A stretch of DNA of 64,000 nucleotides from assembly GCA_965249275.1 (NCBI GenBank), contig CBDFLQ010000005.1, positions 384,001-448,000 on the forward strand, read 5' to 3'. This document shows, one piece after another, positions 1-51,782 of the stretch; position 1 is the first letter of the stretch; each line of letters starts with the position of its first letter. This DNA comes from Dehalococcoidia bacterium (GTDB lineage: Bacteria > Chloroflexota > Dehalococcoidia > Plut-88900). A model generated the notes under the pieces. That model was not told the DNA's origin, searched no databases, and saw only the letters and a list, made by a program, of their open reading frames with translations. A program made the translations under genes and the position numbers.

Positions 1-2
1 TC

Positions 3-173
3 GCATCAGGAGTGAACACCACCACTGTCACTAACTTCGCTACACCTCTATGGGCACTACAATTTGGTGACTGGTTATGGGAGAGAACGGGGGGCGAAAA
101 CATCACCCCAGAGACAGCACAGGCTCAACGGCAAGAATGGTCTCAGAACTTGGCAATCATTCCCACCGTCTAG
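3..173 (+). CDS. 3' end of a hypothetical ORF (partial), convergent with the IS1595 transposase; possible passenger gene
   Basis: Frame 3 is open from the window edge to TAG at 171-173 (...ATPLWALQFGDWLWERTGG...IIPTV*); the other + frames close early. Confidence 0.35.
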   Translation, partial: ASGVNTTTVTNFATPLWALQFGDWLWERTGGENITPETAQAQRQEWSQNLAIIPTV

Positions 174-188
174 CCATCCATACGGTAA

Positions 189-1106
189 CTACACATTGGT
201 AATTAAGTCGTCGTAGGTTAGTCGCTTGCCGTGCGTTCCCTTGATCAACCTCTTCATCTGGTCAAGGGTATCCATGGGCCGGTCGTTGTGCCGCCCAGCG
301 AACTCGGTGGCATAGCGGCTCAAGTGTTTGGGAGAGACATGGTGGTAAGTACCCATAATCCCCCGCTTGAGCATGGCCCAGTGGCTCTCGATGCTGTTGG
401 TCGTAACCTCACCCCTAACGTACTCCCCGGTGGCATGATCAACCGCTTCGTGCTTCAAGGGAATACCCCTGTAGGAGAGGTGTCCATCACTGTGCAAGGT
501 AGCGTCCGGTTCAACGTTGTCGAGAACGAATCCTTGGAGAATGGGTTTCTTCGTAGAGGGAAGCACCTCGGCCTTGATCTGATTAGTTGGCTTATCCAAG
601 AGCCCCGCCACGATGGCCTTACCTTTAGGCCCTCTCCCCATGCCTCTCCACTTCCCGCCAACGTAGGTCTCATCCACCTCGACAGGCCCTCCGAAGAGTC
701 CCTGCTCTGACTCCCACGCCTTCCGTATCCTGTGCGCCAAGTGCCAAGCTGATTTTTGGGTAATGTTGAGGTCCCGATGCAATTTCATCGAGGAAACGCC
801 CTTGAGGTTCGTGGTCATGAGGTAAATGGCGATACCCCACTTGGAGAGAGGAAGGTTGGAACCGTGCATGACGGTGCCAGTTTTGACGGAAAATTCCAGC
901 TGGCAGTAGGTGCAGTGTAAGGGCTTTACCTTGCGGTTGGGGCGACGGGTGATCTCCATGCCGCCACAGCGGGGGCATGATATACCGCTGGGCCAACGAG
1001 ACTCGATGAATAACTGCTCAGCCTTTTCCTCGGTGGAGAATAATTTAGTGACCTCCAGAAGGGACAAACCCTTCCGATAATGCTTACCTGGGGCGTTCCG
1101 TGCCAT
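189..1106 (-). CDS. IS1595-family (ISXO2-like) DDE transposase
   Basis: Zn ribbon CPRC...CTYC; KGVSSMKLHRDL HTH; VEVDETY, LHSDG and NSIES motifs; YHHVSPKHLSRY..EF.GRHN tail; ATG at 1106 with AGGAG RBS (the 1250 start is an over-extension). Confidence 0.95.
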   Translation of the reverse strand: MARNAPGKHYRKGLSLLEVTKLFSTEEKAEQLFIESRWPSGISCPRCGGMEITRRPNRKVKPLHCTYCQLEFSVKTGTVMHGSNLPLSKWGIAIYLMTTNLKGVSSMKLHRDLNITQKSAWHLAHRIRKAWESEQGLFGGPVEVDETYVGGKWRGMGRGPKGKAIVAGLLDKPTNQIKAEVLPSTKKPILQGFVLDNVEPDATLHSDGHLSYRGIPLKHEAVDHATGEYVRGEVTTNSIESHWAMLKRGIMGTYHHVSPKHLSRYATEFAGRHNDRPMDTLDQMKRLIKGTHGKRLTYDDLITNV

Positions 1107-1146
1107 GCGCTGATCTCCTACTTCGGCTATCCTTGTTGACATAACT

Positions 1147-1175
1147 ATTATAACACATCTCCTAATTTGTGTAAA
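1147..1175 (-). promoter_or_regulatory. sigma70-type promoter for the transposase
   Basis: Minus strand TTTACA-N17-TATAAT, preceded by TG (extended -10), about 40 nt upstream of ATG 1106. Confidence 0.75.
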
Positions 1176-1220
1176 CAATGCCCAAGCAATGGAGAAAACA
1201 TGGAAAATACTGCTAAAACT

Positions 1221-1250
1221 TGGACACAATTTCAGTGGAAATAGTATCAT
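1221..1250 (+). promoter_or_regulatory. Divergent sigma70-type promoter for the ncRNA array
   Basis: TGGACA(1221-1226)-N18-TATCAT(1245-1250); predicted start at about 1256-1257 coincides with the first base of the first RNA stem. Confidence 0.55.
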
Positions 1251-1256
1251 ACGGAG

Positions 1257-1410
1257 GGCAGGGTACGCAAGGAATTTATGGCACCAGGAGGCACCAATGG
1301 TCCCCTATCGGGGAATGAAACTCAGCCGGCTCCACTTTGAATAGACGTTCTGCAAAAACGTCGTGGGGTTGGCTACAAGAAGGACATTTTAGACCCTTGC
1401 ATACCCTGCC
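1257..1410 (+). ncRNA. Structured ncRNA unit 1 (long closing stem, bubble/multiloop, inner stem)
   Basis: GGCAGGGTACGCAAGG (1257-1272) pairs with CCTTGCATACCCTGCC (1395-1410), 15/16; inner AGCCGGCTCCAC/GTGGGGTTGGCT 12 bp with G-U pairs; hairpins TCCCC-TATC-GGGGA and GACGTT/AACGTC. Confidence 0.65.
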
Positions 1411-1419
1411 AATACAACG

Positions 1420-1516
1420 TGAGAGGACATGCCTGTTGGTGCAGGCCAGAATTTGCCAAACTCTTGAGAACGTTGGCATATCCAACGTTGCGGTTCGATT
1501 CCGATCCTCTCCGCCA
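1420..1516 (+). tRNA. Non-canonical tRNA-like RNA (9/3 allo-tRNA-type fold), anticodon GCC, long variable arm
   Basis: Acceptor TGAGAGGAC/ATCCTCTCC then G-CCA; D arm GCCTGT-TGGT-GCAGGC; anticodon arm AGAAT-TTGCCAA-ACTCT; variable arm AACGTTGG-CATAT-CCAACGTT; T arm CGG-TTCGATT-CCG. Confidence 0.8.
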
Positions 1517-1542
1517 TCAAATAATTTGTATTATCATATAGA

Positions 1543-1660
1543 TGAGGGGAGTAGTGGTAATCCGGTAGACTCTCGATGTTCCCAACATCGGCATTGCTTA
1601 GGTAGTGTGTGTCAGACGCTGGCACAGAGTTTTTACAGAGGAACCATCTACTCTCCTTCA
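1543..1660 (+). ncRNA. Structured ncRNA unit 3: long stem capped by a four-way junction
   Basis: Outer TGAGGGGAGTAGTGGT/ACCATCTACTCTCCTTCA; GACTCT/AGAGTT closes three abutting 7-bp hairpins CGATGTT/AACATCG, GCATTGC/GTAGTGT and GTGTCAG/CTGGCAC. Confidence 0.7.
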
Positions 1661-1673
1661 AGATTATACATGT

Positions 1674-1743
1674 CGCAGTCCCTGGCTGTGTGACAGGAAC
1701 GCCTTGGTACCAGCGTTGGGCTTTCAACCTGACTGCGCCTCCA
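1674..1743 (+). ncRNA. Structured ncRNA unit 4: small cloverleaf ending in CCA
   Basis: CGCAGTC/GACTGCG 7-bp closing stem; abutting arms CCTG/CAGG, AACGC/GCGTT and GGG-CTTTCAA-CCT; 3' tail CCTCCA. Confidence 0.5.
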
Positions 1744-1760
1744 TATCTCCTCAATTTGAA

Positions 1761-1874
1761 TGGGAAACAAGATGGACGACCAGACATATGTCACTGTTGG
1801 AGGTTTGGCAAGACCTCCTTGATGAATTAGCGCTCGTGTTCAGCGTCGCTTCATATCTGGTCGTCCATCTCCCA
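1761..1874 (+). ncRNA. Structured ncRNA unit 5: long closing stem with internal hairpins
   Basis: AGATGGACGACCAGA (1770-1784) pairs with TCTGGTCGTCCATCT (1856-1870), perfect 15 bp; flanking TGGG/CCCA; internal GGAGGTTT/AGACCTCC and GCGCT/AGCGT. Confidence 0.65.
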
Positions 1875-1904
1875 CTGCTTGATGCCTTATTGTATATAAT
1901 TCCC

Positions 1905-2800
1905 TATTCTTTTATACGAAGAGCACTAATTTCATATTTAATACTCAATACATGCCTTACTCCAAAGAGCACATGGAGAAATTTTACTCCCACATCGATA
2001 AAGACGGCAGAAAGTACAGCACTGACAATTTGAGAAGCCCTGCACCCAGACCTAATTTGACTTACGAGTACAAGGGATACAAACCTCACCCCAATGGGTG
2101 GACAGTGTCACTTGAGAGAATGAAGCGACTCGACGCAGAGGGGCGTCTTCATTTTCCGAAAAAGAAGGACGGTCGAATCCGCATAAAGAAATTCCTTGAT
2201 GAAATGCCCGGCGTGCCTATGGGCAATATATGGGATGACATCAGACCTATCTCATCTCACTCTGAAGAACGCCTAGGCTACCCTACCCAGAAACCCTTGG
2301 CCCTGCTAGAACGCGTAATTAGGGCATCCACCAACGAGGGCGATCTAGTTTTGGACCCCTTTGCGGGTTGCGCCACGGCCTGTGTCGCAGCGGAGAAACT
2401 GAAACGGCAGTGGATCGGCATTGACGTGAGCGACCTTGCAGTCAAGCACGTCTTGGAGCGCATCCAGGATGGTTACAACCAGGGCGACTTCCCGGATATC
2501 CTTGAAACAGGGTTCCATCCCGACAAGGTGGATCACTTAGTTATCAGTGGGGAGGCACGCGCCCCGCGCTACCAAGACCGCAAGCCGGAGCTATACGTAC
2601 ACCAGAACGGCAGGTGTGCGGGCTGCCACCTCGAACTCCCGGAGCGCCTTCTGGCCGTGGACCATATTAAGCCGAGATCCAAGGGGGGCGCCGACGCTAT
2701 CGAAAACCTTCAACTCCTCTGCACTGACTGCAACTCCCGCAAAGGCAACCGGGACATGAAATACCTGTTGGAGTCCCTAAAGAGGGACGGAATAATTTAG
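1905..2800 (+). pseudogene. 5'-truncated N4/N6 DNA methyltransferase (beta class) fused to a C-terminal HNH endonuclease
   Basis: GYPTQKPLALLERVI, LVLDPFAGCAT and WIGID present but no DPPY/DPPF catalytic motif; the frame upstream of ATG 1952 reads FFYTKSTNFIFNTQY up to the IS end; C-terminal CAGC..VDHIKPRSKGG....NLQLLCTDCNSRKG. Confidence 0.8.
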
Positions 2801-2818
2801 AGGCGAGGGCTTTCCAAT

Positions 2819-3757
2819 ATGACCATAGACATTCACAACCACATCTGGACCCGGGAGTATCTTTCCGACCACTGGTGGGATATTTACGCAAACTTTTTCT
2901 CTAGCTATATCACCGACTCCCCATTCTCGGGGACGCCGGAGGAGATAGACCGGAACCTGTTTGCCAAATGCTTTGATCCCGACGGCTCGGAGTGCATAGT
3001 GGAGATGGATGAGGCGGGGATAGACGTGGCCGTGGTCACGGCCATCGACGGGTCATGCGCGCTGGGGGAGGCGCCCAAGTCGATAGAGGAGCAGAACCGG
3101 GAGCTCGCCGACATCTGCGCCGCCTACCCGGAACGCTACATCTTCTTCTCGTGCATCGACCCACGGGCCCCGGGGGCGCTGGAGTTCGTCGAGCGCTCCG
3201 TCGAGGAGTGGAATGCCAAGGGATTCAAGTTTCACCCCAACATGAGTGGGCTGTATCCGTGGCACGAGGCGGCATACCCGATCTACGAACGGCTCCAGGC
3301 TCTCGGGCTTCCCGTCTTGTTTCACACGGGCCAGATGTTCGAGCCTCTCGATCCCAAGTTCAGCCAGCCAAAGGAGCTCATCCAAGTCCTCACCGACTTT
3401 CCGGATTTGAAAGTCATTGCCGCTCATCTCGGCATTGCGTCATGGCGGGAGTTGATTGAAGTGGCGCGGGACAGGCCGAACCTGGTGACAGACTTCTCGG
3501 CGTTCCAGCATGAGGCGGCCAACAACTATGGGAGGTTCTGCATCGTGCTCAGACGGGTGATCGATGGCCTGGGCGTCGATCGCGTCCTATTCGGGTGCGA
3601 CGGCCCAGTGTGGACTCGATGGTATTCCCGCAAGTGGTGGGTAGACCTTGTGAGAAACATGCCTGACAACCCCACGGAGAAGGCGTCGTTTACTCATGAA
3701 GAGGTCGAGGCCATGCTTCACGGCAACGCGGTTCGGGTGTTGGGGCTCGGGGCCTGA
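2819..3757 (+). CDS. Amidohydrolase_2 family metal-dependent hydrolase
   Basis: IDIHNH, KGFKFHP, LFHTG, IAAHLG, RVLFGCDGP, MLHGNA motifs. Confidence 0.9.
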   Translation: MTIDIHNHIWTREYLSDHWWDIYANFFSSYITDSPFSGTPEEIDRNLFAKCFDPDGSECIVEMDEAGIDVAVVTAIDGSCALGEAPKSIEEQNRELADICAAYPERYIFFSCIDPRAPGALEFVERSVEEWNAKGFKFHPNMSGLYPWHEAAYPIYERLQALGLPVLFHTGQMFEPLDPKFSQPKELIQVLTDFPDLKVIAAHLGIASWRELIEVARDRPNLVTDFSAFQHEAANNYGRFCIVLRRVIDGLGVDRVLFGCDGPVWTRWYSRKWWVDLVRNMPDNPTEKASFTHEEVEAMLHGNAVRVLGLGA

Positions 3758-3869
3758 CACTGCAACCCCCACCCCAGCCCTGGATTCCTGCCTCCGCAGG
3801 AATGACGGCATAACGTGCGTTTCGCGTCGAGGCCATGCTGCACGGCAACGCGGTCCGGGTGTTGGGGCT
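3704..3869 (+). repeat. 44-bp direct repeat of the amidohydrolase 3' end, separated by a REP-like palindrome
   Basis: 3704-3747 vs 3826-3869 with 2 synonymous mismatches; TGGATTCCTGCCTCCGCAGGAATGAC at 3781-3806 lies between them. Confidence 0.85.
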
Positions 3870-4095
3870 GAAATCGTAGGCTTCTCTTACGCCCACGCGC
3901 CCTTCGGCCCGCTCGACCCTTCGAGAGCCTCCCGCTTCGGCGGATCTGCGACAGGATGAGCGGCGGGAGTGGTGAAACGGGGCAAATACGAGCGGTGGGA
4001 GTGTGAGATGGGGTCAGAGTGATTCTTCTCCTTTGTTGCCCGTTTACGCTATACGTATTACACTGGCCCGACACCAATCAGGGAGACCGAATGCC

Positions 4096-4671
4096 ATGAC
4101 GACCAAGCAACGAGCCACCTATGCCAGTATGGAGACCAGCACCCCCGAGGACTGGGCAATCATCAAAACCCATGGGTCCCAGCGGCGGGACAAGGTCTAT
4201 AACTCCCTGATGGCTATGTTGAAACAGATGGAGCTATCCGACGACGGCGGGCCTGTCACGGGCCTCGAGCACTCCCTGCAGTCGGCCACACGGGCATACG
4301 AGGACGGCGCCGACGATGAGACCGTCTTCATCGCACTGTTCCATGACATCGGGCAGATCGTTTCGCAGGACAATCACTCGGAGGTCGCTGCGGCCATTCT
4401 CAGGCCCTACATCTCGAAGAAGAACCACTGGATCGTCCAGCATCACGGGGAGTTCCAGGGCTACTACTTCTGGCACCACGTGGGCAAGGACCGCAACGCC
4501 CGGGACAAGTACCGGGACAATCCCTACTACCAAGCATGCGTCGACTGGTGCCACAAGTACGACCAGAACGCTTTCGACGCGAACTACCCGACCAAGCCAC
4601 TGGAGTTCTTCGAACCCATCGTGGAGAGGGTAATGTCCCGGGGGCCCTGGCAGGCGTACGAGACTGCGTAG
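4096..4671 (+). CDS. HD-domain metalloprotein (phosphohydrolase or PhnZ/TmpB-like oxygenase)
   Basis: LEHSLQSATRA, ALFHDIG, NHSEVAAAILRPY, HHGEFQGYY, YDQNAFD; GGGAGA RBS. Confidence 0.85.
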   Translation: MTTKQRATYASMETSTPEDWAIIKTHGSQRRDKVYNSLMAMLKQMELSDDGGPVTGLEHSLQSATRAYEDGADDETVFIALFHDIGQIVSQDNHSEVAAAILRPYISKKNHWIVQHHGEFQGYYFWHHVGKDRNARDKYRDNPYYQACVDWCHKYDQNAFDANYPTKPLEFFEPIVERVMSRGPWQAYETA

Positions 4672-4812
4672 CCCCTCCTCCACTCATACTTCGAGAGCCT
4701 CAGCACGAGCGGCCCCACGCCCCCATCAATACTTCAACTGGCCCCTGTGTCCGCTGGAGGTCTATCCTCGACAGTATGAGCGGCCCCACATCCCTCCCTT
4801 AATTGGCGGGGG

Positions 4813-6075
4813 TCAACATGAGGGGCGTTGTGCCACCTCTGAGCCTCCCGGCATCACTGACCGGAATATCCCCGGCAATGTCCTTATACGCTCGCGGTCT
4901 ACGGCGAGGATTCCGACACTGAGGGCGACGTAGAGGGCGGCGAAGGCGAAGCGTGCTTCGTTGGAGCCTAAGAAGGCGAGAGATGTGAAGAGTTCTCCAA
5001 CAAGCTGCAACACCAGTTGCGCGGTGAACAGCACGAATAGAGCGATAGCTCCTCTCAGCGAGATTGACAACTTCAGAATCAGTACTATCGCGAATAGTGA
5101 CTGAGCCGCAGTCAAGAACACTTCTATCGCCTGCTGATTGTTCATCGCCAGCCCAACCACCTCCCACACCGATTGAGACTCAATCCAAGATATGTTGTAA
5201 GCAGTGGGCAGCGTAGCCACTAGCAGGGTCCACTGGTTCACCTTCGAGGACACCAGGATCCCAATCCCGTCCTCCCCTCTGTTCCTTAGCACGAATATGG
5301 CCGCGAGGAGCATCTCGGGGGCCTCCGAGGCCATAGGTGCGACCCACTGGATGAGCAGGAACTCACTAAGGCCGAGGCTGTGACCTGTCTCTTTAAGGCT
5401 TTCGACGAAAGGTTCGGCAACTATCAGAATTGTCCCTGCGGCTACGACAAATAAAGCTAATACCACGGTGCGGCGCTTTGCCGTAGGCAGTGCCCCTATC
5501 AGAGCCGAGGGGCCAACCAGCTCCGCCTCCACCACTTCCGACTTGAAGTTGGTCCAAACGAAGAGGCAGAAGAGGGCGCCGAGGACGAGGGTGTCGGCGA
5601 GGTGAAGCTGGCCCCTGAGAACGATAGTGAATGCGTACAGGGTGGCAATGAGCAGGATGGCCAGGGCAGGAGAGGCCCCGCCGCCGATGGACAGAGCCCT
5701 CTTGCGGGTCTTGAACCAGTAAATAAATACAACGAGGCTCCAGCCGATGCCAATGAGGAGTCGGTTGGCGCCGGTCATGTTGGCCGTGGCGAGGTTGGCG
5801 TTATCGGGGATGTAGGCGGCGGTCCAGGCCAGATAGACGTCGATGGCGTATTCGGGGAGGACGGCGACGATGGCGAGGACGGAGATGGCGAGGGCCTTGG
5901 GGATGTCGATCTCGGCGACTTCGGAGGCCCAGGACAAGAGGAATGCACTCCCGATTATGGCCAGCCCGAACAATGAAGCGGCTGCAACGTCCGGGAGGTG
6001 CGCCCCAGAGCTCCAAATAGCGAGGCCGGGGACTGTCGCGCCGATGGCAATCGGGATCCAGATGGCCTGTTTCAT
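4813..6075 (-). CDS. CaCA-family Na+/Ca2+(H+) antiporter
   Basis: About 12 TM segments; alpha repeats AVLPEYAID..ANMTGANR and ASEAPE..SSKVNQWT. Confidence 0.85.
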   Translation of the reverse strand: MKQAIWIPIAIGATVPGLAIWSSGAHLPDVAAASLFGLAIIGSAFLLSWASEVAEIDIPKALAISVLAIVAVLPEYAIDVYLAWTAAYIPDNANLATANMTGANRLLIGIGWSLVVFIYWFKTRKRALSIGGGASPALAILLIATLYAFTIVLRGQLHLADTLVLGALFCLFVWTNFKSEVVEAELVGPSALIGALPTAKRRTVVLALFVVAAGTILIVAEPFVESLKETGHSLGLSEFLLIQWVAPMASEAPEMLLAAIFVLRNRGEDGIGILVSSKVNQWTLLVATLPTAYNISWIESQSVWEVVGLAMNNQQAIEVFLTAAQSLFAIVLILKLSISLRGAIALFVLFTAQLVLQLVGELFTSLAFLGSNEARFAFAALYVALSVGILAVDRERIRTLPGIFRSVMPGGSEVAQRPSC

Positions 6076-6159
6076 GGGGTGTGGGGGGTCGGGGGTGGGG
6101 GACTTGACATTATTTGAGTTTAAGGTAGCTGAAGTTCCGAGGGACTGATAGCACTTCCA

Positions 6160-8412: not shown

Positions 8413-10356
8413 ATGAGAAGCAGTTTTATCTATCTCATCATAATCGTCGCGATCGTCGCGATTGTCTTCACGCTCTTCCAGCCATCCTACGGCACGGAGG
8501 ACATTGATCTGTCCGACGTCATATCCATGGCCAAGAGCAATCAGATCAAGGAGATAGAGGTCGACGGGGACAAGCTGACCATCACGGCTCTGGACAATCA
8601 GCGCTACGAGTCCCGAAAAGAGCCCGGCTCCAGCATAGTCGATACTCTGACTGACAACGGCGTCGATATCAGCGCCGGACCCAGCATCCGGGTCAAGGAG
8701 AGGAGCCAGCTCAGCAGCCTCTTCGGGCTCTTCCTCAATTTCCTGCCCCTGATCTTCTTTGGCGCGGTGCTTCTCTTCCTGCTCCGCCAGGCGCAAGGCG
8801 GCAGCAACCAGGCCATGGGCTTCGGCAGGAGCCGAGCCCGTATGTTTGTAGGCAGCAAGACGACCATCACGTTCATGGACGTCGCCGGTGTGGAGGAGGC
8901 GAAGCAGGACCTCCAGGAAGTAGTGGAGTTCCTCCGATTCCCAGAGAAGTTCGCTGCCCTCGGGGCAAAGGTGCCGAGGGGAGTACTGCTGGTCGGGTCC
9001 CCGGGCACGGGCAAGACCCTTCTGAGCCGAGCCGTTGCCGGAGAAGCGGGTGTCCCGTTCTTCTCCATAAGCGGCAGCGAATTTGTCGAGATGTTCGTCG
9101 GAGTGGGTGCATCCCGGGTGCGGGACCTGTTCGACCAGGCCAAGCGCAACGCTCCGTGCATAATATTTGTAGATGAGATAGACGCCGTGGGCCGACACCG
9201 GGGCGCGGGTCTCGGGGGTGGGCACGACGAGCGGGAGCAGACCCTCAACCAGATACTGGTCGAGATGGACGGCTTTGATTCGTCGACCAATGTCATAGTG
9301 CTGGCCGCCACCAACCGCCCCGACATCCTGGACCCCGCCCTGCTGCGTCCTGGCCGCTTCGACCGGCGCGTCGTCCTAGACCTGCCCGATATCAACGGCA
9401 GACGGGAAATCCTAACCGTTCACTCCAAAGGCAAGCCAATGGCCGATGACGTGGACCTTGAAGTGCTGGCCAAGCAGACCCCAGGTTTCAGCGGCGCCGA
9501 CCTTGCCAACCTGCTCAACGAGGCCGCTATCCTTGCAGCCCGCCACTCTCAGAAGACCATCACAACCCGGCAGGTCGAAGAGGCCATAGACCGGGTTATC
9601 GCAGGCCCGGAGCGCAGGAGCCGCCTTATCAGTGTCAAGGAGAAGGCAATCACCGCCTACCACGAGGTCGGGCACGCATTGGTGGCCCGAATGTTGGAGC
9701 ACTCCGACACCGTTCATAAAGTCTCTATCGTGGCTCGGGGTGGGATGGGGGGATACACGCGGCTCCTTCCCTCCGAAGACCGCTACCTCTACAGCCGCTC
9801 CCAGTTCAAGGCCATGTTGGCCACGGCACTCGGGGGGCGGGTCGCCGAGGATCTGACCTTCAACGAGATCACTACGGGCGCCTCCAACGATTTGGAACAC
9901 GCCACCAAGCTGGCCCGGCGCATGGTCACCGAGTACGGAATGAGCGACACCCTCGGGCCCCGGACTTTCGGGCACAAGGAAGAGCTGGTATTCCTGGGCA
10001 AAGAGCTGTCCGACTCGCGCAACTACAGTGAAAAGATCGCTGTCAGCATCGACCAGGAGATCCAGGACCTGATCCAATTTGCTGAGAACACCGCCCGCGA
10101 CATCCTTATCGCCAACAAGCTCAAGCTGGGCCAGCTAGCCGAGTACGTCATGCAAGTCGAGACCCTGGACGGAGACGACCTTGCCGCTGCCTTCGATGCG
10201 GATGCAACGGCTGATCTCACGGTTGTCGTGCCTGCGGTGGTGGCTGCCAAAGCCCCTCCGCCTGCCGTCGAGCCCGAGAAGGACACACCGGCGCCGGAAC
10301 AGCGCGCTCCCGCCTCGGACACCCCGTCCCTGGAGCCGGAGGCGGGCCGGACTTAG
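8413..10356 (+). CDS. ftsH: ATP-dependent zinc metalloprotease FtsH
   Basis: Two N-terminal TMs, [31 protein letters not shown]. Confidence 0.98.
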
Positions 10357-30546: not shown

Positions 30547-30564
30547 CCTTTCCTACGAAAACAG

Positions 30565-30601
30565 AAACAGGGGAGTGCTCTAGAGCACTCCCCTGTTTTT
30601 T
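30565..30601. terminator. Bidirectional intrinsic terminator
   Basis: AAACAGGGGAGTGCTC-TA-GAGCACTCCCCTGTTT plus T tract, between convergent genes. Confidence 0.85.
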
Positions 30602-41761: not shown

Positions 41762-44056
41762 TCATTCTGCCAGCAGCGCCTCCAGAATGTACCGCGCCGC
41801 GGTCTTGTCCAGGGGCTCGTTGTTGTTGCCGCACTTCGGCGATTGTATACAGCTGGGGCAGCCATACTTGCACGGACACCCTTCCAAGGCGTCGAGGGTG
41901 GCCCTCCAGAGCTCCCGTATGAGCTCGAAACCCTTCTCAGTTATCCCCACCCCGCCCGGATGCCCGTCGTAGATGAATATCTGCGGTTTGCCCGTGTCCA
42001 TGTGCATGGGTGTCGAGAGCCCGCCGATGTCCGCTCGGTCACACATGGCGAACATGGGCAGCAGTCCGATAGCGGCGTGCTCCGCTGCGTGCAGCCCCCC
42101 TGGGAAGTCGACGTGGTCTCTCATTATCCGGTCTTGGGCCCATATCGGGATGTCGAACCACAGGGCCTGCGTGTGATAGGTCTGGGACGGCAGGTCCAGG
42201 ATTTCCTCGCCCAGGAACTCTTCCGTTATCCTTTTCTTTTTCTTGTACCCCCATATGGTGTTGGACACCTCCACCCAGCCCCGATACACAGCCACCCCTG
42301 CAGATCGCTTCGCCTCTTCCACCTGCACAATGCGGAGATCGGTGACGTGGTTGGTCTGCGTGTAGTAGTCAACGTCGGTTGGCCTGACGAAGACCAGTGT
42401 GGCGTCCATGTCCAGCTCCGTCACCAAGAACGATTCTCCCTGGTGGAGGTAAACGGCGCCGGGATGAGCTTGCGAAAACGCCGTGCCCTCGTCCACGGTC
42501 TCGATCACCCGGCCCGACCCCTCCAACACCACCTGGTAGTTGCGCCTGGATGCGGAGCGGATGTTCACCCCTTCCGCCGGATAGTCTATCTCCGGTGTTA
42601 AATGCAATCTCCCCTTGACCTGCTTCAACGACCCTTCCTCTTCCAGCCGACGCATATTCTCCTTCATCCCCTCCCCAAATAGCTCCACGTCCGACGGGGA
42701 CAGAGGCCATTCATAGGCGGCACACAAAAGGTGAGGTTCCAGTATGTACGGGTTCGACGGCGCCACCAGCGCGTGCTCGTGGGCCTTGTCGAAGAAGTCT
42801 GATGGGTTGCGCATGAAATATTGGTCAAGCGGATTGGCCTGCCCGATCATGACCGTAAGCGAACCTCCGCCTCGACGCCCGCTCCGTCCCGCCTGCTGCC
42901 ACGCGCTGGCTATGGTGCCCGGATATCCAGTCAGGATAGTCGCGTCCAGGTCCCCGATGTCCACTCCAAGCTCCAGGGCATTTGTGGTACAGACCCCCAG
43001 AAGCTCCCCGTCTATCAGGCCCCGCTCTATGCGCCGCCGATCCTCCGCGAGATACCCCGCCCGATAGGGGCTTATGCGCTGCCCCAGCTCCGGCAACGTC
43101 CTATCGAAGTTCTCCTTGGAGTACATGTAGATAAGCTCCGCGACACGCCTGGTCCGGGCGAAGGCCAATGTCCTGATCCCCCGGGCCACGAGGCGGGTGA
43201 ACAGGAAGGTGGCCTCGGTAGTCGTGCTGCGGCGCGCGCTGCGGGCTTCGTCGATAATCGGCGGGTTCCAGAACGTGAACGTCTTGTTGCCGCTCGGTGA
43301 CCCGTCTTCCGACACGACCTCGAAATCCCTTCCGACAAGGGCCTCGGCGTGCTCCTTTGGGTTCGCTATTGTCGCCGAGCACAGTATGAATTGCGGTGAA
43401 GACCCGTACAGCCGACACACCCTCCGCAGCCGCCGCAGTATGTTCGCCACGTGAGACCCGAACACCCCCCTGTACACGTGCGCCTCGTCGAGAACGACAT
43501 ATTTGAGCCGGCTCAGCATCCGGCTCCAGTTCTTGTGATTGGGGAGCATGCCGAAGTGGAGCATGTCCGGGTTGGTGAGCACTATCTGCGCTGACCTCCT
43601 GATCCGCCCTCGTTCCTCGGTCGGCGTGTCTCCGTCGAAGGTGCTGACCGTGATCTTGCCAAGTCCACGGTCGGCCTGCAACAGCTCATTTAGCGCCCGC
43701 CACTGGTCCTGGGCCAGGGCCTTGGTGGGGAACAGATATAGCGCGGCCGTCCCCCTATCCTCCAGGATATGATTCACGACGGCCGCGTTATAGATAAGGC
43801 TCTTGCCGCTGGCAGCGGGTGTAGCGACCATGACGTTAGCGCCCTCGGACAGAGCGCCCAGGGCTCGGGCCTGGTGGGAGAAGAGGGTTCCCAGCTTCAA
43901 CGCCGAAAGCGCTCGTTCCAAGGCGGGCTTGAACTTGGCCCTGGCCCCGCTATAGGAGCCTTCCTTATGAGGAATAGCCTCTACGTGGACTATCTGTCCA
44001 TCGTAGTCGGGGTGCCTTTTTATTGTTGATAGTACGTCAGAGGTGTCCAACTGCAA
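41762..44056 (-). CDS. SF2 DEAH-box helicase with DUF1998 (YprA/MrfA/SftH-like)
   Basis: ASGKS, FPTKALAQDQ, DEAH, SAT, QQAGRSGRR, C-terminal CPCKYGCPSC. Confidence 0.93.
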   Translation of the reverse strand: MQLDTSDVLSTIKRHPDYDGQIVHVEAIPHKEGSYSGARAKFKPALERALSALKLGTLFSHQARALGALSEGANVMVATPAASGKSLIYNAAVVNHILEDRGTAALYLFPTKALAQDQWRALNELLQADRGLGKITVSTFDGDTPTEERGRIRRSAQIVLTNPDMLHFGMLPNHKNWSRMLSRLKYVVLDEAHVYRGVFGSHVANILRRLRRVCRLYGSSPQFILCSATIANPKEHAEALVGRDFEVVSEDGSPSGNKTFTFWNPPIIDEARSARRSTTTEATFLFTRLVARGIRTLAFARTRRVAELIYMYSKENFDRTLPELGQRISPYRAGYLAEDRRRIERGLIDGELLGVCTTNALELGVDIGDLDATILTGYPGTIASAWQQAGRSGRRGGGSLTVMIGQANPLDQYFMRNPSDFFDKAHEHALVAPSNPYILEPHLLCAAYEWPLSPSDVELFGEGMKENMRRLEEEGSLKQVKGRLHLTPEIDYPAEGVNIRSASRRNYQVVLEGSGRVIETVDEGTAFSQAHPGAVYLHQGESFLVTELDMDATLVFVRPTDVDYYTQTNHVTDLRIVQVEEAKRSAGVAVYRGWVEVSNTIWGYKKKKRITEEFLGEEILDLPSQTYHTQALWFDIPIWAQDRIMRDHVDFPGGLHAAEHAAIGLLPMFAMCDRADIGGLSTPMHMDTGKPQIFIYDGHPGGVGITEKGFELIRELWRATLDALEGCPCKYGCPSCIQSPKCGNNNEPLDKTAARYILEALLAE

Positions 44057-48498: not shown

Positions 48499-51632
<3,134 letters not shown>

Positions 51633-51707
51633 TGCATTATGACACGTGCAGAACGTTCTAATTCTCTATTCAACACAGCGGATCGGGCTCATACCCACCG
51701 CATATGA

Positions 51708-51782
51708 CGCGGGGTGGAGCAGTGGCAGCTCGTCGGGCTCATAACCCGAAGGTCGTTGGTTCGAATCCAACCCCCGCTACCA
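51708..51782 (+). tRNA. Initiator tRNA-fMet (CAT)
   Basis: Cloverleaf with C1:A72 mismatch, GGG/CCC anticodon stem, loop CTCATAA, TTCGAAT, encoded CCA. Confidence 0.96.

Follow-up and report, generated by a model that had tools for sequence, protein, structure and literature searches.

Candidate small-RNA genes, including tRNA-like ones, in the non-coding arm of an IS1595-family transposon from a Dehalococcoidia genome

Positions 1221-1904 of the window analyzed here, a 64-kb stretch of a Dehalococcoidia genome (G000:C5:384001-448000), form the right, non-coding cargo arm of a 3800-bp transposon of the IS1595 family, of the kind known as a transporter insertion sequence (IS). The arm folds into five consecutive modules, numbered units 1 to 5. 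We read it, with a probability of roughly 0.55, as a head-to-tail series of + strand RNA genes carried by the transposon, which would yield non-canonical tRNAs or tRNA mimics acting on the tRNA-handling machinery. Sequence comparison supports three of the five units (2, 3 and 4), which behave as RNA genes would. For units 1 and 5, we infer from folding thermodynamics and position that they may be RNAs as well, and the count of five RNAs draws on this. An initial annotation of the window had proposed a transposon-borne small-RNA cassette. The location inside inverted repeats, the lack of coding capacity and the character of units 2-4 agree with that proposal, but units 1 and 5 are orphans that fold about equally on both strands.

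The right arm of an IS1595-family transposon

The ends of the element were placed by a pair of terminal inverted repeats about 3.8 kb apart, at 6105-6137 and 9872-9904 of the fetched host stretch L003 (G000:C5:376001-388000), the left one lying outside the window (Table 1). Related elements share the outer 16 nt of this repeat at their own ends, and the present element is flanked on both sides by the 8-bp sequence TATTCTTT. Duplications of 8 bp are typical of the IS1595 family in ISfinder. The enzyme is also of this family: it combines an ISXO2/IS1595-type DDE domain with an N-terminal zinc ribbon and matched the NCBIfam model transpos_IS1595 (NF033547) with an E-value of 3.5e-50. Terminal inverted repeats together with a short target duplication are likewise the ends by which IS1595 members are recognized. 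No inner, vestigial inverted repeat was found beside the transposase promoter.

The transposon interrupts a gene encoding a DNA methylase with an HNH domain. The N-terminal half of this gene (L003:5547-6104, positions 1-94 of the N6_N4_Mtase profile) stops exactly at the left repeat arm. The C-terminal part lies beyond the right one, where an open reading frame (ORF) runs from 1952 to 2800 (+), its profile match covering the last part only. When the element and one copy of the duplication were removed in silico, an unbroken methylase-HNH frame of 484 aa was obtained. Contigs from samples X4, X7 and X9 matched the C-terminal part at ≥99% identity, differing at 3, 9 and 2 of 638, 896 and 677 nt, respectively. 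Their match begins exactly at 1905, and their 442 to 1108 further letters are unlike window 1-1904. Judged from the C-terminal side alone, these contigs would look like an empty insertion site. Because of the inverted repeats, the TATTCTTT duplication, the restored 484-aa frame and the contig breaks at 1905, we assign the stretch to the right arm of an IS1595 transposon whose insertion into the methylase-HNH gene appears to be recent. The repeat, the duplication and the frame also confirm the IS end that the initial annotation had tentatively put at 1904. In samples X9 and X4, contigs give some depth over 1411-1880 at ≥80% likeness, and 1223-1410 had no contig cover in the four sequencing runs compared.

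The largest ORFs of the arm are 118 (+), 132 (-) and 142 aa long. None of the three matched a Pfam family, and the 132-aa and 118-aa frames had no homologue among candidates from a set of 5.8 billion proteins, of lengths 0.55-1.75 times the query. The earlier statement that the arm holds no credible ORF is upheld by these searches. That one protein-coding gene spans the region is hardly credible: the ORFs exist, but they are without family, and the substitutions that separate units 3 and 4 from their homologues (see below) are compensatory in stems.

Two promoter-like sites flank the space between the transposase and unit 1 (Table 1). The outward one had already been proposed from the sequence and was recovered by our promoter scan. 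From promoter spacing alone, its predicted start falls at about 1257, the first base of unit 1. The scan returned 3 sites, versus 1.7 ± 1.3 in shuffled sequences, and by itself is weak evidence.

Table 1. The transposon, its insertion site and its cargo. Positions are those of the window (L003 coordinate minus 8000) unless L003 is named.
Feature	Position	Strand	Basis or description
Irregular tRNA, anticodon GCC (Gly), 89 nt	L003:6659-6747 (window ~-1341 to -1253)		Type II, A73-CCA
Irregular tRNA, anticodon UGC (Ala), 89 nt	L003:7323-7411 (window ~-677 to -589)		Type II, A73-CCA
Predicted membrane-protein ORF, 181 aa, 3' end in window	3-173; full L003:7628-8173	+	Cargo of the same transposon
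IS1595-family transposase, 305 aa	189-1106	-	DDE_Tnp_IS1595 (PF12762) 1.8e-30; Zn_ribbon_IS1595 (PF12760) 3.5e-08
Transposase promoter-like site, TTTACA-17-TATAAT	1147-1175	-	11/12 matches; TG before -10
Outward promoter-like site, TGGACA-18-TATCAT	1221-1250	+	10/12 matches
Unit 1, 154-nt orphan module	1257-1410		16-bp closing stem, three inner hairpins; MFE -64.0 (+), z -5.1; -68.2 (-), z -6.2
Unit 2, putative 8/4 allo-tRNA-like gene, Ser-type acceptor	1420-1516	+	tRNA-Sec model; colinearity with G251 and G286 allo-tRNAs
Unit 3, candidate 118-nt four-way-junction RNA	1543-1660	+	MFE -52.4, z -5.5; homologue in G011
Unit 4, candidate 72-nt tRNA-like RNA	1672-1743	+	G005 homologue with compensatory pairs
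Unit 5, 114-nt orphan module	1761-1874		Near-perfect closing stem, adjoins inverted repeat; MFE -50.8 (+), z -5.75; -49.4 (-), z -6.0
Right terminal inverted repeat	1872-1904		33 nt, 91% complementary to L003:6105-6137 (G000:C5:382105-382137)
Target-site duplication, 8 bp, TATTCTTT	1905-1912; second copy L003:6097-6104		Read from flanks
Interrupted DNA methylase-HNH gene, C-terminal part	1913-2800	+	N6_N4_Mtase profile 132-216 of 221, plus HNH
MFE, minimum free energy of folding; z, score against shuffled sequences.

Folded modules and candidate RNA genes

When 1251-1910 was folded as one molecule, the minimum free energy (MFE) structure resolved into five domains at the coordinates of the five self-closing units that had been drawn by eye, except for unit 4, whose earlier limits, 1674-1743, are better moved to 1672-1743 to give a 9-bp stem. 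Folded singly and compared with 200 shuffles each, units 1, 3 and 5 beat all of them (Table 1); folding beyond chance thus holds for these three and less so for units 2 and 4, which are discussed below. A GC-corrected MFE scan of the 64 kb in 116-nt segments ranked unit 5 first and unit 3 third of 3195, above every 23S rRNA segment, at a GC content of about 50% versus 59% for the window mean. Over the whole arm, the + strand fold has 17 G-U pairs and -240.2 kcal/mol, and the - strand fold has 24 and -235.6 kcal/mol. The claim that stem imperfections are G-U pairs of the + strand did not survive this comparison, in which unit 1 was better on the - strand. Strand specificity is clear in unit 3 only (-52.4 on the + strand versus -34.8 on the -). 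In Rfam 15, unit 2 was the sole unit with a match, below threshold; units 1, 3, 4 and 5 had none at gathering score, and the other matches listed had E-values of at least 2.9.

Unit 3 appears to be a conserved RNA, one of a two-member family absent from Rfam. It is predicted to fold into a long closing stem, interrupted by an AA bulge, that leads through an inner stem to three 7-bp hairpins abutting one another. A covariance model built on it (R1) found a full-length homologue in genome G011, of another genus in the same family (G011:C1:647830-647947; 58.4 bits, E-value 1e-10). The two copies are 69% identical and show 5 compensatory pairs, 94.7% of cells being paired versus 38-48% when slid. 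Folded alone, the G011 copy takes the identical shape (z -9.55). No match besides G011 was returned by R1 over 60 relatives and 150 class genomes (overlapping sets), and a metagenome scan with a unit-3 motif gave 13 stretches, none confirmed by R1. The homologue stands alone in G011 and starts about 7 nt after TGT-TATAAT, as read from the sequence. In the window, a TATTAT/TATCAT element precedes unit 3 at the same distance as this -10-like site. Unit 3 also contains a terminator-like hairpin followed by a U-run, conserved in G011. This hairpin and the preceding -10-like element suggest that some modules are perhaps transcribed separately.

The possibility that unit 3 is a Y RNA (YrlA) was rejected: the Ro protein (TROVE, PF05731) was found in 0 of the 3 genomes G000 (the host), G005 and G011, with control genomes positive, and the hairpin loops of unit 3 have 3-4 nt and form no T-loop. 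Near the unit-3 homologue, G011 carries a fragment of an IS1-like DDE transposase (L042:2399-2800, - strand, 1.9e-06) and a 161-aa membrane-protein ORF (L042:1809-2294, - strand) with a weak PycTM match (E-value 0.004).

Unit 4 is probably a conserved tRNA-like RNA ending in N-CCA. It would fold into a 9-bp acceptor-like stem and three short hairpins, followed by one unpaired base and CCA. One of the hairpins has a 10-nt loop that contains the palindrome UGGUACCA. When the arm was compared with 60 relatives, genome G005, of the same genus, gave a single 65-nt BLAST match (88%) that falls in unit 4. Over 72 aligned columns the two copies are 83% identical, and 8 of the 12 differing columns lie in 4 compensatory pairs; 95.2% of cells were paired versus 29-43% when slid. 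The G005 gene stands alone, with no adjoining transposase within the locus. A scan for the exact unit-4 motif in one genome for each of 185,579 species gave 1 match, in a Dehalococcoidia metagenome-assembled genome (L040), in the same kind of place as in G005. The initial annotation had asked for covarying homologues of its units; units 3 and 4 have one each, with 5 and 4 compensatory pairs, but units 1 and 5 have none in the 190 other genomes searched.

In G005, the unit-4 homologue has as a neighbor, at a distance of about 100 nt and convergent with it, a gene for a CBS-domain protein like the NCBIfam family DS11_antiphage (L004:284-1399, + strand; 215 bits, below the cut-off of 260). On its other side this gene is bordered by a tRNA-Met gene. 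The C-terminus of its product has a putative RxxxxH motif that may be HEPN-like. With this query, no DS11-like gene was found in the host genome.

Judged from its sequence, unit 2 is best described as an allo-tRNA-like gene of Ser type whose anticodon is that of Gly and whose stems have three defects. The Rfam tRNA-Sec model (RF01852) aligned end to end with 1421-1511 at 34.6 bits (E-value 7e-5). The unit is colinear with 8/4 allo-tRNAs of two related elements, in genomes G251 and G286, at 58% and 49% identity; those two are 62% alike. The acceptor stem, in an 8/4 register assigned by homology, has 7 of 8 pairs with U·C at 1:72, and the T stem has 3 of 4 pairs with the loop UUCGAUU, so that 10 of the 12 pairs of the acceptor branch form. 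The D stem (6/6) is closed by a UGGU tetraloop and the variable (V) stem is complete (8/8). The anticodon stem has 4 of 6 pairs and a 7-nt loop, UUGCCAA, with the anticodon GCC instead of the UCA of tRNA-Sec. This loop is identical to that of the host tRNA-Gly(GCC). The nearest host tRNAs over the whole unit are tRNA-Ser (67%), with which it shares the 3' end CCUCUCCGCCA. The discriminator is G73 (G1513) and CCA is encoded at 1514-1516. Unit 2 thus combines three marks of allo-tRNAs, namely a tRNA-Sec-like score (34.6 bits, below the gathering score), G73 (allo-tRNAs having G73 or U73) and a non-Ser anticodon. It is not a canonical tRNA by ARAGORN or by the tRNA model RF00005 at gathering score; the latter had no match in 1000-2100 at E-values up to 10. 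Because RF01852 matched every one of 150 class genomes, on true tRNA-Sec as well as on Ser and Leu tRNAs, no genome-wide statistic of allo-tRNA association can be given.

For units 1 and 5, covariance models (R3 and R2, respectively) were run over 40 relatives and 150 class genomes (overlapping sets), that is, 190 other genomes per model. R3 also had no match in the order, whose 11 genomes besides the host are all among the relatives. Unit 5 as a DNA-level feature is a live alternative. For the arm as a whole, we consider it decidedly improbable that the hairpins are palindromes acting at the DNA level instead of RNA genes, for example as insulators, as terminators or as subterminal sites that bind the transposase or form secondary structure. 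This view draws on units 1 and 5, whose closing stems consist of pure Watson-Crick pairs and whose folding on the - strand equals or exceeds that on the +, and on the position of unit 5 next to the inverted repeat. The 8-mer TGGACGAC of its stem recurs near the left end of the element (a post hoc reading with no chance comparison), and a related element in genome G008 has a stem-closed module of 105 nt about 60 nt from its inverted repeat. Such an account would at most explain these two units: unit 3 loses 17.6 kcal/mol on the opposite strand, the T-loop and CCA ends of units 2 and 4 make sense on the + strand only, and eight compact relatives transpose with the repeat beside the promoter and no modules. 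The G008 module (same genus; L009:3736-3840, z -3.5 on the + and -4.9 on the - strand) sits inside the repeat of an element with otherwise protein cargo and had no R2 match.

Irregular tRNA cargo and the predicted role of the cassette

The left arm of the transposon also carries tRNA-like cargo. Its two irregular tRNA genes (Table 1) combine a Leu-like body with an anticodon stem of 6 bp, and tRNA-Leu is their nearest host relative (72-75%). Of the 44 tRNAs that ARAGORN found in the genome, no others are irregular; the genome also has a normal tRNA-Gly(GCC) and tRNA-Ala(UGC). All 12 host tRNA genes extracted, of the 44, encode CCA, as do units 2 and 4.

Homologues of the transposase, at identities of up to 61%, occur in 84 of 301 class genomes, the host included, and 29 transposase loci were examined for related elements. 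Eight of them are compact: the conserved end GGGAATTATATAC... lies just 40-100 nt before the start and adjoins the promoter directly. Four have cargo between repeat and transposase start, and in the remaining 17 no repeat was found at ≤5 mismatches. Three repeat-bounded relatives hold irregular tRNA genes: an 8/4 allo-tRNA(GCG) in G251, an 8/4 allo-tRNA(GAU) in G286 and a 100-nt Ser-like tRNA(GAG) in G037. A Leu-like tRNA(CUC) lies about 900 nt from the transposase in G290, where no repeat was found, and the G008 element has protein cargo instead. The G251 and G286 genes are clean 8/4 forms with a long V arm and G73; they correspond to the allo-tRNAs described by Mukai et al. (2017, Nucleic Acids Res, PMC5389517), among which GCG is one of the predominant anticodons. 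Irregular tRNA genes thus appear to be a recurrent payload of this IS1595 group, and units 1, 3, 4 and 5 seem peculiar to this copy of the element.

The left arm further encodes a 75-aa DUF2188 protein (L003:6758-6985, - strand) that matches the PADLOC defense candidate PDC-S16 over its full length (E-value 5e-32). Directly upstream of it, a small ORF of about 48 aa contains the motif IPDTFE(D/N), which is also present in the G008 element (tblastn E-value 1e-4) and, by eye, in that of G251. A 133-aa ORF of the left arm has no known family, and the 181-aa membrane-protein ORF matched no Pfam, NCBIfam or PADLOC family.

In the mechanism that we propose, transcription would run outward from the promoter that diverges from that of the transposase, giving one transcript from about 1257 that may then be processed to individual stable RNAs. 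Long helices and acceptor stems are the features of tRNA and rRNA precursors on which RNase P or Z and RNase III act, and the long closing stems and acceptor-like stems of the modules could serve them as processing sites. The units and the irregular left-arm tRNAs (GCC, UGC) would act on the host tRNA-handling machinery and not as ordinary decoders, possibly by offering tRNA-directed nucleases or enzymes a decoy or a spare substrate in conflicts between mobile elements and host defense. Alternatively, they might be low-level mis-decoders of Gly and Ala codons. Mimicry of tRNA is suggested because two scaffolds carry the Gly GCC loop, a PDC-S16-like gene lies on the element and a DS11-like gene lies near the unit-4 homologue.

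A larger claim, which we offer as a possibility less likely than not, is that IS1595 transposons of this Dehalococcoidia lineage are vehicles for RNA-only payloads, with RNAs cut from one transcript that either neutralize tRNA-targeting defense nucleases or deliberately recode Gly and Ala codons of the host. Such a payload would combine mis-charging tRNAs of Ser and Leu type, bearing Gly or Ala anticodons, with a mini tRNA mimic and novel structured RNAs; in the first case it would amount to a transposon-borne anti-defense module based on RNA.

Several observations weigh against reading the arm as a working series of RNA genes. Unit 2 scores below the tRNA-Sec gathering score of 47, and ARAGORN called no tRNA in window 1-6000, nor at lowered stringency over units 2-4. 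The earlier view that one unit is clearly tRNA-like holds for the family match but not for these calls. Because of the three stem mismatches, the low score and the ARAGORN miss, unit 2 may be a pseudogene. Its folding is modest (z -2.1, with 6 of 200 shuffles equally good), and unit 4 alone folds no better than shuffles (z -0.6). Covariation in units 3 and 4 comes from two sequences each and is equaled by 56 and 40 of 500 shuffles, respectively, the unit-3 alignment having been fitted to the model. For neither homologue was a location inside an IS seen, and the hairpin and U-run of unit 3 could stop a polycistronic transcript. Unit 1 was found in 0 of 190 other genomes and 0 of 38 related loci. 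Unit 5 was found in 0 of 190, with short partial matches only in the 38 loci (best E-value 0.0055). Both fold equally or better on the - strand, with no G-U pairs in the Watson-Crick closing stems. The cassette is single-copy, a similarity search of the host genome finding 1221-1904 once, and has been seen in one genome only. Of the 11 other genomes with a DS11-like gene, 0 gave a unit-4-like RNA by nhmmer in the fetched loci, so the adjacency is not conserved. The tRNA mimicry proposed for defense conflicts is read from genomic context.

Many of these points would equally be expected if the arm were captured intergenic DNA, a collection of decaying small-RNA or tRNA genes and chance palindromes carried as passive cargo without present function. 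The below-threshold scores of unit 2 in the tRNA-Sec, tRNA and ARAGORN searches, its three stem mismatches, the orphan state of units 1 and 5, the poor folding of unit 4 and the single-copy state in one genome all fit, as do the stand-alone homologues of units 3 and 4, which piecemeal capture would explain. An allo-tRNA pseudogene overlapping a transposon-related ORF is also described in the accessible part of Mukai et al. (PMC5389517). We nevertheless hold passive decay to be rather unlikely. Units 3 and 4 keep their whole structures against homologues at 69% and 83% identity, with 8 of 12 differing unit-4 columns in compensatory pairs. Decay would erode the stability that puts units 5 and 3 at ranks 1 and 3 of 3195. 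A good outward promoter places its start on the first paired base, and irregular tRNAs recur in at least three other repeat-bounded elements.

A translating role was also weighed, in which unit 2 and the left-arm tRNAs would be charged with Ser or Leu and place these residues at codons for Gly (GGC/GGU) or Ala (GCA), with the remaining units as accessories. SerRS and LeuRS do not read the anticodon. The long V arm, G73 and encoded CCA of unit 2, and the Leu-like body and A73-CCA of the left-arm tRNAs, would suit such charging, and allo-tRNAs with non-Ser anticodons inserted Ser in Escherichia coli, according to the accessible parts of Mukai et al. (PMC5389517) and a review (PMC7609411). The idea is improbable in view of the U·C at 1:72, the 3/4 T stem and the 4/6 anticodon stem of unit 2, since destabilized allo-tRNA(UAU) variants were inactive in translation in the same paper (PMC5389517, accessible part). 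Units 1, 3, 4 and 5 lack anticodon-arm geometry, and the constant misreading of Gly and Ala codons should carry a cost.

Searches of other sequence sets were negative. A metagenome scan with the transposase gave 167 pattern matches, none confirmed; viral contig scans with the unit-3 and unit-4 motifs gave 0 matches each; and blastn of the cassette against plasmids and phages gave no match. A type III toxin-antitoxin RNA array was rejected as a candidate: the cassette has no direct-repeat family, the five units are mutually unlike, and no ORF has a matching family.

Other observations were made along the way. The G251 relative is a 2.9-kb element (L036:4838-7759) with a complete methylase-HNH gene, the 8/4 allo-tRNA(GCG) gene and the transposase; this methylase-HNH cargo is the same kind of gene as the one interrupted in the host genome. 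Homologues of it adjoin the transposase in 6 of the 29 loci (L010/L036, L019, L024, L026, L030 and L031). Elsewhere in the window, other very stable segments were ordinary: 30560-30600 is an intrinsic terminator after a 381-aa ORF, and ~43681-43800 lies inside a 764-aa ORF. Within 48499-51779, a 23S rRNA match spans 3136 nt against a model of 2925 positions and is followed by a tRNA at 51708-51779; no 5S rRNA match was found in the 64-kb window.

Comparison with known systems

Irregular tRNAs and allo-tRNAs are known mainly from metagenomic fragments, and their link with mobile elements has so far been conjecture. In the present transposon, as in at least three of its relatives, irregular tRNA genes lie within defined transposon boundaries. 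The arm offers a concrete, clonable unit of promoter, five modules and inverted repeats, and adds two candidate families outside Rfam, represented by unit 3 (the 118-nt four-way-junction RNA) and unit 4 (the 72-nt N-CCA mini tRNA-like RNA). It also extends allo-tRNA-type genes to Dehalococcoidia. If a decoy or recoding role were true, a simple DDE transposon would spread RNA-based tools for translation conflicts, so far mainly a phage trait.

The tRNA region of phage T4 is co-transcribed with the species 1 and 2 RNAs, which are small stable RNAs without an assigned role, and tRNA-processing enzymes free the individual molecules. The arm resembles it as a mobile element with a tRNA array and tRNA-sized stable RNAs, although processing is only predicted here. 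It differs in that T4 is a phage with mostly canonical decoders, whereas the present element is a DDE transposon with non-canonical ones.

A structured RNA in the non-coding end of an IS also recalls the bridge RNA of IS110 and the omega RNA of IS200/IS605, and the arm does lie next to the transposase promoter. That the cassette makes a guide or regulator RNA directing transposition is, however, very improbable. Its longest match to the inverted repeats or the empty target is 7 nt, a length reached in 167/200 and 193/200 shuffled targets, so that complementarity to ends or target is not beyond chance. The transposase, a zinc-ribbon DDE enzyme, is of another class. The cassette is absent from compact relatives, modules stand alone elsewhere, and there is no Rfam match at gathering score.

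Transporter IS of the IS1595 family carry passenger genes (Siguier, Gagnevin and Chandler 2009, cited in PMC3129680), which are protein genes in the accessible part of that source. The present element shares with them a single IS1595-type transposase, terminal inverted repeats and transposition-unrelated cargo inside the repeats. Unlike those described there, it has one whole arm that is RNA-only and at least three tRNA-like genes. A literature search, judged by titles and the starts of abstracts, gave no report of IS1595 elements with tRNA cargo.

The closest described system is the polycistrons of allo-tRNA-like genes reported by Mukai et al. (2017, PMC5389517), and this corrects the initial annotation, which had seen no described system to fit. 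In the accessible parts of that paper and of the review (PMC7609411), allo-tRNA-like and other irregular tRNA genes are described in polycistrons that were recovered from metatranscriptomes of soil, were assigned to Acidobacteria and had a loose connection to toxin-antitoxin systems and transposable elements. To the extent described there, both arrangements have several non-canonical tRNA-like genes head to tail, some with destabilized stems, and at least one tRNA-Sec-like member, whose D stem is long and capped by a tetraloop, whose V arm is long and whose anticodon is non-cognate. They differ in that the genes here lie in a repeat-bounded IS1595 transposon of a Dehalococcoidia-type genome, whereas theirs come without defined transposon boundaries, and in that modules 1, 3 and 5 have no tRNA features, a comparison drawn from the paper exclusive of its figures of irregular structures.

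Unit 2 itself agrees with 8/4 allo-tRNAs in its tRNA-Sec-like score, 6-bp D stem with tetraloop, 8-bp V stem, G73, non-Ser anticodon and 8/4 register. It departs from them in its 10/12 acceptor-branch pairs, its 4/6 anticodon stem and the missing ARAGORN call. Its host class also lies outside the Clostridia, Proteobacteria and Acidobacteria from which allo-tRNAs are reported in the accessible parts of both sources (PMC5389517, PMC7609411). In its defects, unit 2 appears to resemble the genes for which Mukai et al. reported no activity in translation and suspected a tie to transposable elements (PMC5389517, accessible part). Relative to these polycistrons, what is new here is the defined IS1595 boundaries, the recurrence over several elements and the Dehalococcoidia host lineage, together with the presence, in one arm, of structured modules other than tRNAs; two of the modules define small, new candidate RNA families.

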